Below are positions 4,679-12,844 of a DNA stretch of 64,000 nt, piece by piece. The stretch's first letter is position 1. Each line of letters opens with the position of its first letter. Source of the DNA: Bacteroidota bacterium (GTDB lineage: Bacteria > Bacteroidota > Bacteroidia > Chitinophagales > Chitinophagaceae). The position numbers and the translations under genes are program-made. The stretch covers positions 10,746-74,745 of the forward strand of contig JBMOKQ010000043.1 of NCBI GenBank assembly GCA_049324295.1. The letters run 5' to 3'. The notes beneath the pieces were generated by a model. It saw only the letters and a program-made list of their open reading frames with translations, made no database searches and was not told the DNA's origin.

Positions 4679-4752
4679 TCCCAAATAGCTCAGTTGGTTA
4701 GAGCATCTGACTGTTAATCAGAGGGTCGCTGGTTCAAGTCCAGCTTTGGGAG
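4679..4752 (+). tRNA. tRNA-Asn (GTT)
   Basis: Cloverleaf: acceptor TCCCAAA/TTTGGGA, D stem GCTC/GAGC, anticodon stem TCTGA/TCAGA with loop CTGTTAA, T arm GCTGG-TTCAAGT-CCAGC; CCA not encoded. Confidence 0.97.
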
Positions 4753-4756
4753 CAGA

Positions 4757-7535: not shown

Positions 7536-7892
7536 TTATGCTAACAGCACTTCCGCAGGAATACTTAATTCCTTATGAAACAACTTTGCAAGCTCCAGCG
7601 TGAGCGGCTTACGCTTGTTAAGCAATGCAGAAACATATCCTTTGCTACCAACTTTTCCAACTAAATCTTTGTTCTTTAAACCCAGATCCTGCATCTTCAG
7701 TTTAATTACCTCTATAGGATCGGGCACAGGCACAGGATAATGAACATCCTCATATTGTTTTATCAGCAAAAGTGCTACCTGAACTTTCTCGCCTTCTGCA
7801 CTGCCAGGCTTAATGCGCTTATCAAATTGATTGTCAACCCAATCAAGGTATTCCTGGTATTGCTTTTTTGTTTTTATTATTTTAAGTTCCAT
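7536..7892 (-). CDS. higA: HigA-type HTH antitoxin
   Basis: IKTKKQY...LLIKQYEDVHYP...PDPIEVIKLKM + XRE HTH (GSKGYVSALLNKRKPLTL). Confidence 0.9.
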   Translation of the reverse strand: MELKIIKTKKQYQEYLDWVDNQFDKRIKPGSAEGEKVQVALLLIKQYEDVHYPVPVPDPIEVIKLKMQDLGLKNKDLVGKVGSKGYVSALLNKRKPLTLELAKLFHKELSIPAEVLLA

Positions 7893-7894
7893 GG

Positions 7895-8206
7895 TTATTT
7901 CTTTTTAAACGGAATCATTTTAACATCAATCTTATCGTATTCAGCATGTGTTCCAAACCATTTTATCTGAATAGCCTTATAATCAAACAGCATTCTTACA
8001 ACCAATCTGTATTTATTACCCATAATATTGAAGACGATTCTGTCATCTCCTATAAGGCTTGCATTACCGTATATTTTTTTTAACTCATTAAAGTTTTTAA
8101 AATCAGCTTTCACCAGTTCATGATACCACTCCTGCAATGCTGTTGCAGCAGCCGGGTATTTGCTGCAGTAATCCAATAAGGTTTTTCTGGTGATGATATT
8201 AAACAC
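7895..8206 (-). CDS. higB: HigB-family type II toxin (mRNA interferase)
   Basis: NIITRKTL..Y..LQEWY...IVFNIMGNKYRLVV...WFGTHAEYDKI. Confidence 0.92.
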   Translation of the reverse strand: MFNIITRKTLLDYCSKYPAAATALQEWYHELVKADFKNFNELKKIYGNASLIGDDRIVFNIMGNKYRLVVRMLFDYKAIQIKWFGTHAEYDKIDVKMIPFKKK

Positions 8207-9310: not shown

Positions 9311-9520
9311 TTACTTTACATCAAACCGTTGCAGTTCCGATTTGCTGATGATGATCTTTCCATCCTGGCAGTTGATGTCGATGGTATGCCCGGCCTTAAA
9401 ACCGGTATCACGCAGCCATTTGCCGCATAGTAGTATGGTGGGGAAGTATACAGCATTGCCGAGTTCACGGTTAAACCATTTATTGCATACGGTGAGCCGT
9501 CTTGTTTTTGCTGTTGGCAT
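9311..9520 (-). CDS. SymE family type I toxin
   Basis: RRLTV...FPTILLCGKWLRDTGFKAGHTIDINCQDGKIII matches the SymE/AbrB-fold signature; ORF open to 9541. Confidence 0.85.
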   Translation of the reverse strand: MPTAKTRRLTVCNKWFNRELGNAVYFPTILLCGKWLRDTGFKAGHTIDINCQDGKIIISKSELQRFDVK

Positions 9521-9672
9521 ACGGAGTATTTTATGCAGCAAAGCACCATTAGGTAGCCCTTGTATCCTACATAGCCCCCCTGTATTTTACGGGTTATTGT
9601 ATTGTATTTTACAGCTATATTATCCGGATAAATTTTGTAATTTTCCTATTATTATAACCTGAAACTTTTCCT

Positions 9673-10095
9673 ATGCTACACAATACCAATACTAACCATA
9701 AAGTACACGAAGGCCGCAACGTAAAACGGTTTCGTGAAATGCTGGGTATTAAACAGGATGCACTGGCCATTGAGCTTGGCGATGATTGGAACCAGCAAAA
9801 AATTTCTTTATTAGAACAAAAGGAAAGCATTGATGCTCCCCTGCTACAGCAAATTTCCGCTGCATTGAAAATACCGGTAGAGGCGATACAAAATTTTGAT
9901 GAGGAACAGGCGGTGAATATTATTGCGAATACGTTTAATAACAGCGATAGTGCTATTGGTCTTGTCATCAACAACAATAATCCAATAGAAAAAATCATAC
10001 AACTGCATGAAGAGAAGATTGCATTGTATGAAAGAATGTTGAAGGAGAAGGAGGAGATGATGGTGAGGTTGGAGAGGTTGATTGAGAAGAAATAA
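9673..10095 (+). CDS. XRE-family HTH transcriptional regulator
   Basis: HEGRNVKRFREMLGIKQDALA...QQKISLLEQKE; coiled-coil C-terminus. Confidence 0.9.
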   Translation: MLHNTNTNHKVHEGRNVKRFREMLGIKQDALAIELGDDWNQQKISLLEQKESIDAPLLQQISAALKIPVEAIQNFDEEQAVNIIANTFNNSDSAIGLVINNNNPIEKIIQLHEEKIALYERMLKEKEEMMVRLERLIEKK

Positions 10096-10800
10096 ATGGC
10101 TTACCAACCCATCTTTAAATTCATGGCTAAAGAGACCAAAAGAGCAACACCCAAAAAAGCATCACCTGCAAAAAAAGCTGCTGTCAAAAAGAAAGCAACT
10201 CCAAAGCGTTCTGCGGTTAATACTCCTGCTACAGCTTCACGGCGTGTTAAAATAATGATAGGGTCTTCAGTATATGGGTTCGAAGATCAACTTTCTGCAA
10301 TTGTGGCACAACTCACAACGCTGGGCTACGAAGTATTCAATTCGCATTCCGGGAGTATTAAAGTTAATCCTGGAATGTCTAATCTGAACAATTGCCTGGA
10401 AGCTGTAAAAGAATGTGATCTGTTTCTTGGTATTATTCGCCCCTACTGCGGTACAGGCAATATAGGTGACAAAAACATAACTTTTGAAGAAATCAAAGAA
10501 GCTATACGTTTAAAGAAACCATATTGGTTTCTTGTGCATCGGGATGTGGTGTTTGCACGCCTGCTGTTCAGTAAAATAAAGCTAAAAAGCGGCGATGTTA
10601 TTAAGGTAGAATCTAATAAGAATTTTGATCCTTTATCTATCGAAATGTATGAATACGTAATTAAAAAACACGTACCGGTAACACTCCGAAATGGTAATTG
10701 GGCGCAAGAGTTTTTTCGCCTCGATGATATGATGACTTACATCAACACTCAATTTTCAAGCAGAGAGTTTATTGATAATATACTCAGTCAAAACCCATAA
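10096..10800 (+). CDS. DUF4062 domain protein with a Lys/Ala-rich N-terminal tail
   Basis: KIMIGSS...CLEAVKECDLFLGII...G...ITFEEIKEAIRLKKP matches the DUF4062 (TIR/nucleoside-deoxyribosyltransferase-like) pattern. Confidence 0.75.
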   Translation: MAYQPIFKFMAKETKRATPKKASPAKKAAVKKKATPKRSAVNTPATASRRVKIMIGSSVYGFEDQLSAIVAQLTTLGYEVFNSHSGSIKVNPGMSNLNNCLEAVKECDLFLGIIRPYCGTGNIGDKNITFEEIKEAIRLKKPYWFLVHRDVVFARLLFSKIKLKSGDVIKVESNKNFDPLSIEMYEYVIKKHVPVTLRNGNWAQEFFRLDDMMTYINTQFSSREFIDNILSQNP

Positions 10801-10804
10801 AAGC

Positions 10805-12283
10805 ATGGATAACAGTTTTATCATAGACAATTTACTTGACCAGAGGGAAAGTGCAAGACTGGAGTATAAGGAAACAGTTGATCTTGATGCTATTGCAAAA
10901 GCCATTACCGCCTTTATCAATACTAAGGGTGGCGATTTAATAGTTGGAGTAGATGAAACAGGAAAAATTGTAGGAGTACCCAACGTAAATGTTACAGTAC
11001 GCAATATTCAGAACTATCTTGTAGAGCACATTACGCCTACCGCCCCCATCGCTGTTCAGGCCATTACCTATAAAAAAAAATCAGTTGTATTAGTAAGCGT
11101 TTGGGAAGGTGCTAAAAAACCTTATCAGTATAACAGCCTTATCTACGATCGTATTGGCCGTCGTACAACTATCTTAAAATCAGAAAAACTTCCAACACTC
11201 ATTAAACAGCGTAAAGAAGCAGATTTTCATTGGGAGCGTATGCCGGTGTTAGGGGCAGAAATAAAAAGAGACCTTGACATTAAGGAAATAAAAAAGACCA
11301 TACAACTTTACAAAGAATACAACCACGAAAAAATTATTGATACGGAAGATTTTCTGATACAAACCGGATTGATGCAAAATGGCAATATTACCAATGCTTG
11401 TATCGTGCTTTTTGGTAAAAACCCCACAAGGTTCATTCCTCAATCTCGTATCCGGGTAACACTTTATCCAGGCAAAAAATCAGGTAATCAATTTCTGGAT
11501 GATAGAATATTTGAAGGAAATATTTTAAAGAACATCCCTTCTATTTTTGAATATTTCGAAACTGTCTTTGGTAAAATGCTTACTGTGAATGGGCTGGTAA
11601 GAACAGATAAGCGCAACTACCCTGTACTGGCCATGCGTGAAGGTTTATTAAATGCCATTGTACACCGAGACTATAATTCTGTTAATGGGTTTTTACAAGT
11701 CTCAGTTTTTTCAGACCGTACAGAAATAGCCAATTATGGAGCTTTACCCCAAGGCATTACTATTGCCGATTTAAAGGAAGAACATAATTCTATCCTTCGT
11801 AATCCCGACATAGCTCAAATGTGCTTTTACAGAAAATACATAGAAATGTTGGGTAGCGGAACCCTACGCATGGTAAAAGATTGTAAAAACAATAAGTTTA
11901 AGGAACCTGTATGGCAGCAACAACAAAAAATAACTACGGTAGTTTTTGCAGGCGTTTCACATCATAAAAAAATTGAGGGAATAACTGAGGGAATAACTGA
12001 GGGAATAAACAAAACCACCCTAAAAAAGATTGAGGGAATAACTGAGGGAATAACTGAGGGAATAACTGAGGGAATAAAGGATAAAATGAAACAGATGTTG
12101 GCGCTGTTGTATAACAATGAAGGCATCAGAACTGTAGATATGGAAGAGCAGCTTGAAATACCTGCCAAAAGCCTGGAACGATATATTAAAACCTTAAGAG
12201 ATGCCGGCTTGATAGAATACAAAGGCGCCAAAAGAAGCGGCGGATATTACCTGACACGAAAAGTCCAAACTAAATTAAAATAA
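10805..12283 (+). CDS. Schlafen/AlbA_2 domain + RecG C-terminal-like (HATPase_c_4) + winged HTH protein
   Basis: ESARLEYKE...AFINTKGGDLIVGV (AlbA_2); REGLLNAIVHRDY, LRNPDIA, EMLGSG; C-terminal HTH IEYKGAKRSGGY; ORF open from 10772. Confidence 0.88.
   Translation: MDNSFIIDNLLDQRESARLEYKETVDLDAIAKAITAFINTKGGDLIVGVDETGKIVGVPNVNVTVRNIQNYLVEHITPTAPIAVQAITYKKKSVVLVSVWEGAKKPYQYNSLIYDRIGRRTTILKSEKLPTLIKQRKEADFHWERMPVLGAEIKRDLDIKEIKKTIQLYKEYNHEKIIDTEDFLIQTGLMQNGNITNACIVLFGKNPTRFIPQSRIRVTLYPGKKSGNQFLDDRIFEGNILKNIPSIFEYFETVFGKMLTVNGLVRTDKRNYPVLAMREGLLNAIVHRDYNSVNGFLQVSVFSDRTEIANYGALPQGITIADLKEEHNSILRNPDIAQMCFYRKYIEMLGSGTLRMVKDCKNNKFKEPVWQQQQKITTVVFAGVSHHKKIEGITEGITEGINKTTLKKIEGITEGITEGITEGIKDKMKQMLALLYNNEGIRTVDMEEQLEIPAKSLERYIKTLRDAGLIEYKGAKRSGGYYLTRKVQTKLK
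11975..12079 (+). repeat. In-frame 12-bp tandem repeats GAGGGAATAACT (EGIT), tracts of 3 and 4 units
   Basis: 11975-12010 and 12032-12079, directly visible. Confidence 0.95.
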
Positions 12284-12589: not shown

Positions 12590-12844
12590 TTAGCCTCTGT
12601 TTATCTGAAGTGTTTTCTTCAAAGATTTAACCACATCCAATAAGGCCTCATCTTGGTCATCCCATTTTGATATGGGTTTGGCATCTTTTGGTAGTGCTTG
12701 ATATTGACTAACAGGAAAGCTATCAAAATCGCATGGACGAATGATTATTGGGATAATCCTAACTAAGCCTTTTTTATAGCGTTCTAAAGCCTTTCTGATC
12801 TCAACATCATTTATACTGGAAAGATGATTTTTTGAAAGTAAAAC
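12590..12844 (-). pseudogene. TIR-domain gene remnant (C-terminal half, no start codon)
   Basis: Hand translation: VLLSKNHLSSINDVEIRKALERYKKGLVRIIPIIIRPCDFDSFPVSQYQALPKDAKPISKWDDQDEALLDVVKSLKKTLQINRG*; in-frame TAG directly upstream. Confidence 0.75.

Follow-up and report, generated by a model that had tools for sequence, protein, structure and literature searches.

A stand-alone NIR (DUF4062) protein and a Schlafen-ATPase form a mobile two-gene cassette in Bacteroidota that is very probably a phage-defense module

A 64,000-nt stretch of a Chitinophagaceae genome (assembly GCA_049324295.1, contig JBMOKQ010000043.1, positions 10,746 to 74,745; hereafter the window) encodes two adjacent open reading frames (ORFs), ORF2 and ORF3, that form a co-inherited, horizontally mobile, accessory cassette. 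ORF2 is a stand-alone NIR/DUF4062 protein with a TIR-like fold, and ORF3 combines a Schlafen AlbA_2 domain, a GHKL ATPase, and a C-terminal winged helix-turn-helix (HTH). The pair combines two recently characterized immune modules in a new two-gene form and is very probably a hitherto unnamed phage-defense module. An earlier reading of the same DNA, made from its letters and ORF translations (the original prediction), had proposed a three-gene anti-phage operon in which an XRE-type gene (ORF1) joins the two others and a histone-like tail of the DUF4062 protein binds phage nucleic acid. That proposal is partly supported by our analysis: it was right in kind, as a sensor-effector defense pair, and wrong on the XRE gene and the basic tail. 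The features of the operon, all on the forward strand, are as follows.

9673-10095, + strand: ORF1, 140 aa, XRE-type HTH protein
10096-10800 (or from 10123), + strand: ORF2, stand-alone NIR/DUF4062 TIR-like protein
10123-10245, + strand: basic N-terminal extension of ORF2, residues ~10-50, rich in Lys, Ala, Pro, and Thr, with 15 Lys or Arg in ~41 residues
10477-10491, + strand: ITFEE motif of ORF2, residues 128-132, of which E132 (10489-10491) is the candidate catalytic glutamate
10805-12283, + strand: ORF3, 492 aa, Schlafen AlbA_2, GHKL ATPase, and winged HTH
10847-11170, + strand: Schlafen AlbA_2 domain of ORF3, residues 15-122 (PF04326)
10847-10870, + strand: Schlafen motif E15-x4-E20-x-K22, intact in the window copy
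11693-11947, + strand: ATP-binding core of the GHKL domain (HATPase_c_4, PF13749)
11974-12077, + strand: acidic (EGIT)n linker between the ATPase and the winged helix, encoded by perfect 12-nt tandem repeats in two runs
12062-12265, + strand: C-terminal winged HTH of ORF3, residues ~420-487

The coordinates confirm the tight coupling of three genes that had been predicted, with a gap of 4 bp between ORF2 and ORF3 and, on condition that ORF2 begins at its first ATG (10096, giving 234 aa), one of 0 bp between ORF1 and ORF2. If the ATG at 10123 is used (225 aa), the first gap becomes 27 bp, and this second start is the more likely one, judging by the alignment of homologs and by the database gene call (P0001, 225 aa).

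The linkage of ORF2 to ORF3 was followed in one genome per species, which yielded 41 loci from the Bacteroidota, Ignavibacteriales, Cloacimonadota, and Neomarinimicrobiota. An ORF3 homolog is found directly downstream of the NIR gene and on the same strand in 40 of the 40 loci with downstream sequence, and in most loci the NIR stop codon overlaps the start of the partner by 8-11 nt. A second sample comprised 401 Bacteroidota genomes, 13 of which encode an ORF2 relative. Ten of the 13 were examined and contain 11 NIR places, at each of which the adjacent downstream gene is the best ORF3-like gene of the genome (the second best for the second place in genome G278), and some of these ten genomes hold up to 16 Schlafen-ATPase paralogs. 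Pairwise identities of the two proteins co-diverge (r = 0.90, and r = 0.67 within the close clade), NIR identity falling from 77% to 42% while that of the partner falls from 68% to 33%. The pair had been predicted to behave as one unit, and adjacency in every instance examined, together with this correlation, bears that out. The ~2.1-kb pair is spread across phyla of the FCB group, was detected in none of 21 genomes of the same family as the window, and is present on a Hymenobacter plasmid, where it adjoins traK/M/N. Identity of the NIR protein is 70-78% for most database homologs, which come from several Bacteroidota orders, and 72-77% across orders and even phyla. Some copies have decayed: a Flavobacterium locus (L048:8001-10021) has a frameshifted NIR gene and a split partner, and the NIR genes of G335, G326, G374, and G278:C33 contain in-frame stops. 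Strict linkage, co-divergence, patchy distribution, and decayed copies together identify the pair as an inherited unit that is both mobile and accessory.

The original prediction had also placed the pair in a defense setting, and comparison across loci agrees. Type I restriction-modification (R-M) genes are found in 16 of 42 loci; the gene immediately upstream of the pair encodes HsdS in 12 of 41, and the gene immediately downstream encodes HsdM or HsdR in 9 of 39. Other loci combine the pair with Gabija, Wadjet, or a prokaryotic Argonaute (pAgo), or, like the window, with toxin-antitoxin genes and a tRNA hotspot. Three database homologs of ORF2, each with the same downstream partner, lie in very different places: after Gabija and before a pAgo gene, alone among glycosidase genes, and inside a type I R-M operon. 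Further neighbors include Wadjet JetC/JetD, MmeI, Fic, RteC, transposases, and tra genes, and also cell-wall genes, and many loci lie among housekeeping genes. The window has no hsd gene close to the pair, and HsdS was undetectable anywhere in the window's genome, which is 100% complete by marker genes; the pair therefore cannot depend on type I R-M. An association with pAgo was considered because ORF3 matches the N-terminal half of the 1121-position pAgo model of PADLOC and because of loci L002 and L003, and was discarded: a pAgo gene adjoins the pair in 1 of 42 loci, and the window contains no trace of PIWI.

ORF2 matches the DUF4062 profile PF13271 at 38.9 bits (cut-off 24.7) over residues 52-136, and at 41.2 bits in a six-frame search of the genome, and thus belongs to the DUF4062/NIR domain family. 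Its AlphaFold2 model (predicted local distance difference test score, pLDDT, 80) is a single α/β domain. The top Foldseek matches of the model are MilB, BcmB, DNPH1, nucleoside deoxyribosyltransferases (NDT), ThsB (EcThsB), the SPARTA TIR, and SARM1, and the TIR/nucleoside-transferase-like fold that had been named for DUF4062 proteins is the one found here. The published spectrum of fold matches for the NIR domain of PsAvs2, later shown to be an NADase, is the same. At the level of sequence, no solved structure was matched by ORF2 at E ≤ 1. The conserved part of ORF2 (~185 aa) is wholly accounted for by the NIR fold in both alignment and model, with no extra domain and no AUX or HEAT sensor fused to the core, and the 671 homologs in the database are mostly 195-205 aa long. 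The DUF4062 protein had been said to keep the glutamate of an ITxEE motif; ITFEE or ITHEE is indeed kept in 34 of 34 aligned members of the close family. A divergent subclade carries SITHQE or SITHME, so only the second glutamate, E132, is invariant in all 41 sequences. E132 is located where the Pfam DUF4062 match ends. Judged by position, its distance from the domain start is comparable to that of the catalytic glutamates of characterized NIR/DUF4062 proteins (KpSwz E97, PsAvs2 E108, Vulcan E98, and VstA E103).

The PKKA/KKAA-rich, histone-like tail described in the original prediction exists as a strongly basic Lys/Ala/Pro-rich stretch, but it is an N-terminal extension and not a C-terminal tail. 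Residues 1-50 have a pLDDT below 60, and the basic stretch is predicted to be disordered. The long extension is limited to the window, locus L009, and the close database matches P0001-P0006; shorter forms occur in L027 and L019, and most other NIR members have ~7-10 residues at the N terminus, a few of them lysines. A stretch confined to close relatives, and reduced to about ten residues in most members, cannot be the family's sensor of phage nucleic acid, the role that had been assigned to it; it is a lineage-specific embellishment. Electrostatic pairing of the basic N terminus with the acidic EGIT linker of ORF3 was also considered and discarded, because the two are uncorrelated (rho = -0.13).

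The partner had been described as carrying an AlbA_2/Schlafen domain, an ATPase-like domain, and an HTH, and all three were found in ORF3: SLFN_AlbA_2 (PF04326, 1.6e-19), HATPase_c_4 (PF13749, 4.8e-17, residues 297-381), and a C-terminal winged HTH. Assignment of the last is based on weak Pfam matches to TFIIE_alpha, Rrf2, and HTH_45, on PADLOC matches to the tails of CARF-HTH, WYL, and CasR models, and on a MarR/ArsR fold. The AlphaFold2 model (pLDDT 82.5) contains the Schlafen, GHKL, and winged-helix parts, and Foldseek returned a full-length match to 3LMM (8e-22, a structural-genomics protein) as well as matches to the N domains of mammalian SLFN5/11/12/13/14, the SAMD9 tRNase, and MarR/ArsR winged helices. 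In the GHKL domain, residues R278, E279, N283, H287, R288, Y290, G312, E347, G350, and G352 are invariant in 31 of 31 sequences, and the E279-x3-N283 spacing equals that of E314/N318 in RzAgo, which coordinate Mg-ATP (bioRxiv 10.64898/2026.05.29.728809). Conservation of the Schlafen nuclease motif, E-x4-(E/D)-x-K, is of another kind. It is intact in 24 of 36 NIR-linked partners (23 of 31 in the close family and 1 of 5 among divergent members) and broken in the other 12, with substitutions at each of its three positions (E to K, Q, S, or A; K to I, R, or L). The original prediction had set tRNA cleavage on a par with nucleotide depletion as the effector activity; erosion of the motif in about a third of members, against the unvarying NIR glutamate and ATPase motifs, argues against that parity. 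The 12-nt repeats that encode the linker were located by Tandem Repeats Finder at 11974-12008 (2.9 copies) and 12031-12077 (3.9 copies), each with 100% match. Even the most divergent members retain a periodic, acidic four-residue repeat (EGIT, EGVN, DAVN, or EGIS) at the linker position, in a copy number that varies. The Schlafen-ATPase protein is unusually expanded in three genomes of genus g72 (G278, G290, and G038; 2.4-3.0 Mb), each with 12-16 matches.

NIR domains have been coupled repeatedly, whether in cis or in trans, to this ATPase chassis as well as to other switch proteins, a conclusion that is drawn from a fusion family and from two alternative pairings. The fusion is represented by a 507-aa protein of a Chlorobiaceae genome (G046; L061:8933-10456, - strand), in which DUF4062 (residues 4-89) is joined to HATPase_c_4 (residues 332-418), NIR replacing Schlafen. 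The gene for this NIR-GHKL fusion shares its type I R-M operon with a NIR plus Schlafen-ATPase pair. At least 914 matches to the fusion family were found in Chlorobi, Mariprofundus, Elusimicrobiota, Planctomycetes, and others, many of the relatives with an HTH; the best 120 of them all contain PF13749, and nearly all also contain PF13271. The ATPase part of the fusion aligns to ORF3 residues 196-373 (E = 1e-24), conserved ATP-binding motifs included. A divergent pair in G038 consists of a 407-aa tandem-NIR protein (L058:2792-4015, - strand) and a Schlafen-GHKL-NACHT protein of at least 931 aa (L058:3-2795, - strand), whose gene comes next and overlaps the first by 4 nt, and tandem-NIR proteins are also encoded in L047 and L049. 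On the 8.9-kb Acinetobacter baumannii plasmid pC9_4 (NZ_CP113446.1; L065, 2477-4351), the gene for a bare 182-aa DUF4062 protein (34% identity to ORF2) ends 3 nt before that of a Fic family protein, with VapBC adjoining; this may be another pairing of a NIR protein in trans.

Although the XRE gene had been counted as a member of the system, it is absent from about 90% of loci. An ORF1 homolog lies upstream of the pair in only 5 of about 50 loci (the window, L009, L025, L048, and L052). The ORF1 family itself has at least 7984 database matches, at least ten times the size of the NIR family, and heads unrelated genes in Elizabethkingia, Flavobacterium, and Niabella. This combination of rare linkage to the pair and a far larger family with unrelated cargo rules out the XRE gene as a conserved third component; it is probably a local, optional regulator of transcription that, in this lineage, shares a transcript with the pair. 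The HTH of ORF1 (residues ~14-82, followed by a coiled-coil-like C-terminal helix) is a weak match to HTH_3 (17.4 bits, under the 23-bit cut-off) and matches the PADLOC model HTH_VI at 1.4e-7. Elsewhere, members of the ORF1 family, which are 70-86% identical across the Bacteroidota, precede variable and mostly unannotated cargo, once adjoining Gabija, AbiH, and SRA-HNH. In the window and its close relatives L009 and L052, ORF1 and a SymE-like gene are divergently arranged and travel together.

Experimental work published in 2026 has established that DUF4062/NIR enzymes deplete NAD+, hydrolyzing it to ADP-ribose and nicotinamide, and that both the conserved glutamate and a sensor domain or partner are required. 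TIR-like NADases are activated by assembly, the Schlafen-GHKL supradomain tetramerizes on ATP binding (bioRxiv 10.64898/2026.05.29.728809), prokaryotic Schlafens are proven tRNase effectors, and DUF4062 genes as a family are enriched near defense genes. Because ORF2 has no sensor of its own, because ORF3 is its constant partner, and because the NADase glutamate and the ATP site are invariant while the nuclease site is not, we favor, with a probability of roughly 0.55, an abortive-infection module with ORF3 as the ATP-dependent sensor and scaffold and ORF2 as the obligatory NAD+-depleting effector. Under this model, defense should require the NADase glutamate and the ATP site but not the Schlafen nuclease. 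We infer that ORF3 would act as a regulated chassis that binds ATP and shifts its oligomeric state on an infection cue entering through the winged helix, the RNA-binding surface of the Schlafen domain, or both. Through physical contact between the two proteins, this change of state would assemble or release ORF2, a bare NIR domain that would hydrolyze NAD+ once assembled. In copies that keep E-x4-E-x-K, the window copy among them, the Schlafen domain may add tRNA cleavage. The original prediction had likewise envisaged a sensor-effector pair ending in nucleotide depletion or tRNA cleavage; the likely outputs agree with published work on the two domain families, while the XRE gene and the basic-stretch sensor fall away.

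Several observations weigh against this reading. In structure, ORF2 comes closest to CMP/dNMP N-glycosidases (MilB, BcmB, and DNPH1) and not to TIR NADases, so that NAD+ is proposed as the substrate by extension from other DUF4062 clades. The NIR domain of the fusion family is only distantly related to ORF2, and the fusion is therefore a link at the level of domains and not of orthologs. About 60% of loci have no recognized defense gene within 8 kb, and neither ORF2 nor the pair is represented by a model in PADLOC v2. Searches of phage and viral collections and contigs turned up no relatives, which is neutral for a defense function but provides no signal of a host-virus arms race.

Four other explanations were weighed, along with a broader form of the favored one. 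The roles of the two proteins could be reversed, as in Thoeris, with the NIR protein making an NAD-derived nucleotide signal that the Schlafen-ATPase binds before cleaving tRNA. TIR-family enzymes can make signaling nucleotides, as they do in Thoeris, the fold of ORF2 matches that of ThsB among others, and the proven tRNase activity of prokaryotic Schlafens would suit the 24 of 36 members, including the window copy, with an intact motif. However, a third of members have lost catalytic Schlafen residues yet keep the NIR glutamate, ORF2 has no domain able to sense, and a Pfam search of ORF3 detected no known nucleotide-signal-binding domain such as SLOG, SAVED, or CARF, all of which makes the reversal unlikely. 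We consider it slightly less probable again that the pair is a PrrC-like guard or back-up of type I R-M, kept latent by the R-M complex and released by phage anti-restriction proteins. Its placement between hsdS and hsdM or hsdR in many loci, along with the R-M counts given above, would fit such a guard, as would the known exchange and fusion of Schlafen-ATPase modules with type I R-M subunits (bioRxiv 10.64898/2026.05.29.728809). Yet in 26 of 42 loci no type I R-M gene lies within 8 kb of the pair, the complete genome of the window has no detectable HsdS, and the pair also occurs on a plasmid, amid genes for glycosidases and cell-wall functions, and next to Gabija, Wadjet, or pAgo.

A role outside defense is improbable: ORF2 would then be a nucleotide N-glycosidase or deoxyribosyltransferase-like enzyme of salvage or modified-nucleotide removal, and ORF3 its DNA-binding ATPase regulator. 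The top fold matches of ORF2 (MilB, BcmB, DNPH1, and the nucleoside deoxyribosyltransferases), the MarR/ArsR-like winged helix at the end of ORF3, and the many loci amid housekeeping genes would all be expected of such a pair. They are outweighed by the patchy, horizontally transferred distribution with pseudogene copies, by recurrence within R-M operons and defense islands, by the family-wide enrichment of DUF4062 genes near defense genes, and by the precedent of a DUF4062 domain that had the same reported fold matches and was then proven to be an NADase. The three-gene version of the original prediction, with the histone-like stretch as the sensor of phage nucleic acid, is the least credible of the alternatives; the tight same-strand spacing in the window, the 15 basic residues of the stretch, and a short Lys-rich N terminus in most family members speak for it, but the long extension is confined to the window's close relatives, ORF1 is missing from most loci, and N-terminal net charge does not co-vary with the acidic linker of the partner. 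The broader form of the favored reading is tentative, though less remote than any of these four. In it, the GHKL-winged-helix part would be a general ATP-driven switch with interchangeable heads (Schlafen or NIR in cis, NIR in trans, and added NACHT or pAgo), the Schlafen domain of this clade would be repurposed, often as a catalytically dead domain, from a nuclease into an RNA or tRNA sensor, and the module would read a phage-induced change in cellular RNA and destroy NAD+. Two immune effector families that humans also possess, as the SLFN proteins and the NIR domains of TEP1/NWD1, would thereby be cross-wired.

Among characterized systems, close relatives of ORF2 are the single-gene DUF4062 defense systems Swarozyc (KpSwz) and Evangelion (Eva01) (bioRxiv 10.64898/2026.05.01.722283; 10.64898/2026.06.25.731849), which share with it the DUF4062/TIR-like core, a conserved glutamate (catalytic in those systems, the candidate catalytic residue in ORF2), and a mobile, patchy distribution. 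Abortive infection through NAD+ depletion, as in those systems, would be expected of ORF2 and ORF3 by analogy. In Swarozyc and Evangelion the sensor is part of the protein itself, a C-terminal AUX domain that defense requires, whereas ORF2 is a bare domain whose constant companion is a separate Schlafen-ATPase-winged-HTH protein, and the texts of the Swarozyc and Evangelion papers do not mention such a partner. Vesta, which consists of the NIR protein VstA and the alkaline phosphatase VstB and was described together with the NIR systems NIR-Avs2 and Vulcan (bioRxiv 10.64898/2026.09.04.749371), resembles the pair in having a small NIR protein in a conserved two-gene operon and in using NIR as a modular effector swapped between sensors, including STAND NTPases. 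In Vesta, however, the partner is a phosphatase that is dispensable for defense and VstA has an extra C-terminal domain, whereas ORF2 has none and ORF3, with its Schlafen-GHKL-winged-HTH architecture, is the only candidate sensor. Since ORF2 has neither an AUX nor a HEAT domain and no phosphatase partner, the pair is not Swarozyc, Evangelion, Vulcan, or Vesta. The terms Schlafen, AlbA, and GHKL are absent from the text of the three DUF4062 preprints, a search that covered text and not the figure panels of "selected operons," in which the pair may have been depicted earlier.

ORF3, with PF04326, PF13749, and a C-terminal HTH, is a member of the Schlatpase-HTH or pSlfn HisKinase-HTH class, comprising the stand-alone Schlatpase(-HTH) proteins described with the SLFN-pAgo RzAgo (bioRxiv 10.64898/2026.05.29.728809) and the pSlfn "HisKinase-HTH" class (PMC13056530). 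It has the same architecture, the E-x4-E-x-K motif, the Glu/Asn pair of the GHKL domain, and the affinity for type I R-M operons and NACHT fusions. In contrast to the Schlatpases, for which no obligate partner was reported (bioRxiv 10.64898/2026.05.29.728809), members of the ORF3 clade are strictly linked to a NIR gene upstream, and many of them have a degenerate nuclease motif. Because the Argonaute core is absent from the window, ORF3 is not a SLFN-pAgo. DUF4062 is not mentioned in the text of the Schlafen papers, and the pairing is absent from their text and available supplements, figures lying outside that search. SPARTA (short pAgo plus TIR-APAZ) and Thoeris, whose TIR and ThsB proteins are among the fold matches of ORF2, share a logic with the pair and not membership, a TIR-family NAD+ consumer being controlled by a nucleic-acid-sensing or oligomerizing partner, separate or fused; the pair has no APAZ, pAgo, or SIR2-SLOG effector, and no evidence of a signaling nucleotide was found. 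PrrC/EcoprrI is likewise nested between hsd genes, as the pair is in about a third of its loci, and the Schlafen domain is a possible tRNA-directed nuclease; the pair differs from it in fold, has no ABC-ATPase anticodon nuclease, and is frequently found without any R-M genes, including in the window's genome.

The predicted toxin-antitoxin and tRNA neighbors of the operon are all real, and their positions are as follows.

4679-4753, + strand: tRNA-Asn (ARAGORN), at the left edge of a variable region
7536-8206, - strand: HigB/HigA-type toxin-antitoxin pair (HigB_toxin 2.4e-29; PADLOC PD-Lambda-2_A 1.7e-33 and PD-Lambda-2_B 3.6e-33)
9311-9541, - strand: SymE-like toxin gene (PF08845 at 6.2e-9), divergent from ORF1

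HigB matches PD-Lambda-2_A in full, and the PD-Lambda-2_B match of the HigA-like antitoxin (7536-7892, - strand) covers only positions 1-118 of 402; HigBA here is an ordinary toxin-antitoxin pair and not a complete PD-Lambda-2 system. When window positions 1-26000 were compared with a genome of the same genus (L063, G315:C2:1036000-1054000), the two were syntenic up to tRNA-Asn and then encoded wholly different genes, the first a 413-aa ORF, consistent with a tRNA-anchored variable region at this locus. Since only the left flank up to tRNA-Asn is common to both genomes, no clean insertion boundary could be drawn, and the empty-site comparison was set aside. Downstream, ~900 bp with no long ORF separates ORF3 from type IX secretion system (T9SS)-type genes. 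This interval contains an open 84-residue fragment with no start codon (12593-12844, - strand), earlier called a TIR remnant, a label that is unverified, as the fragment has no Pfam match at E ≤ 0.001.

It was only in 2025-2026 that DUF4062/NIR NADases and, separately, bacterial Schlafen-ATPases were demonstrated to be immune modules; both have human relatives, TEP1/NWD1 and SLFN11-14, respectively. The pair accounts for a recurrent unannotated cargo of type I R-M operons and is therefore worth adding to defense-annotation tools. It bears on whether a Schlafen domain can serve as a sensor rather than an executioner, and it offers a minimal two-protein system for how a sensor-less TIR-like NADase is switched on in trans by a separate ATPase. 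If the favored reading is true, the pair would be the first case of a NIR NADase and a Schlafen-ATPase working as one obligate unit.

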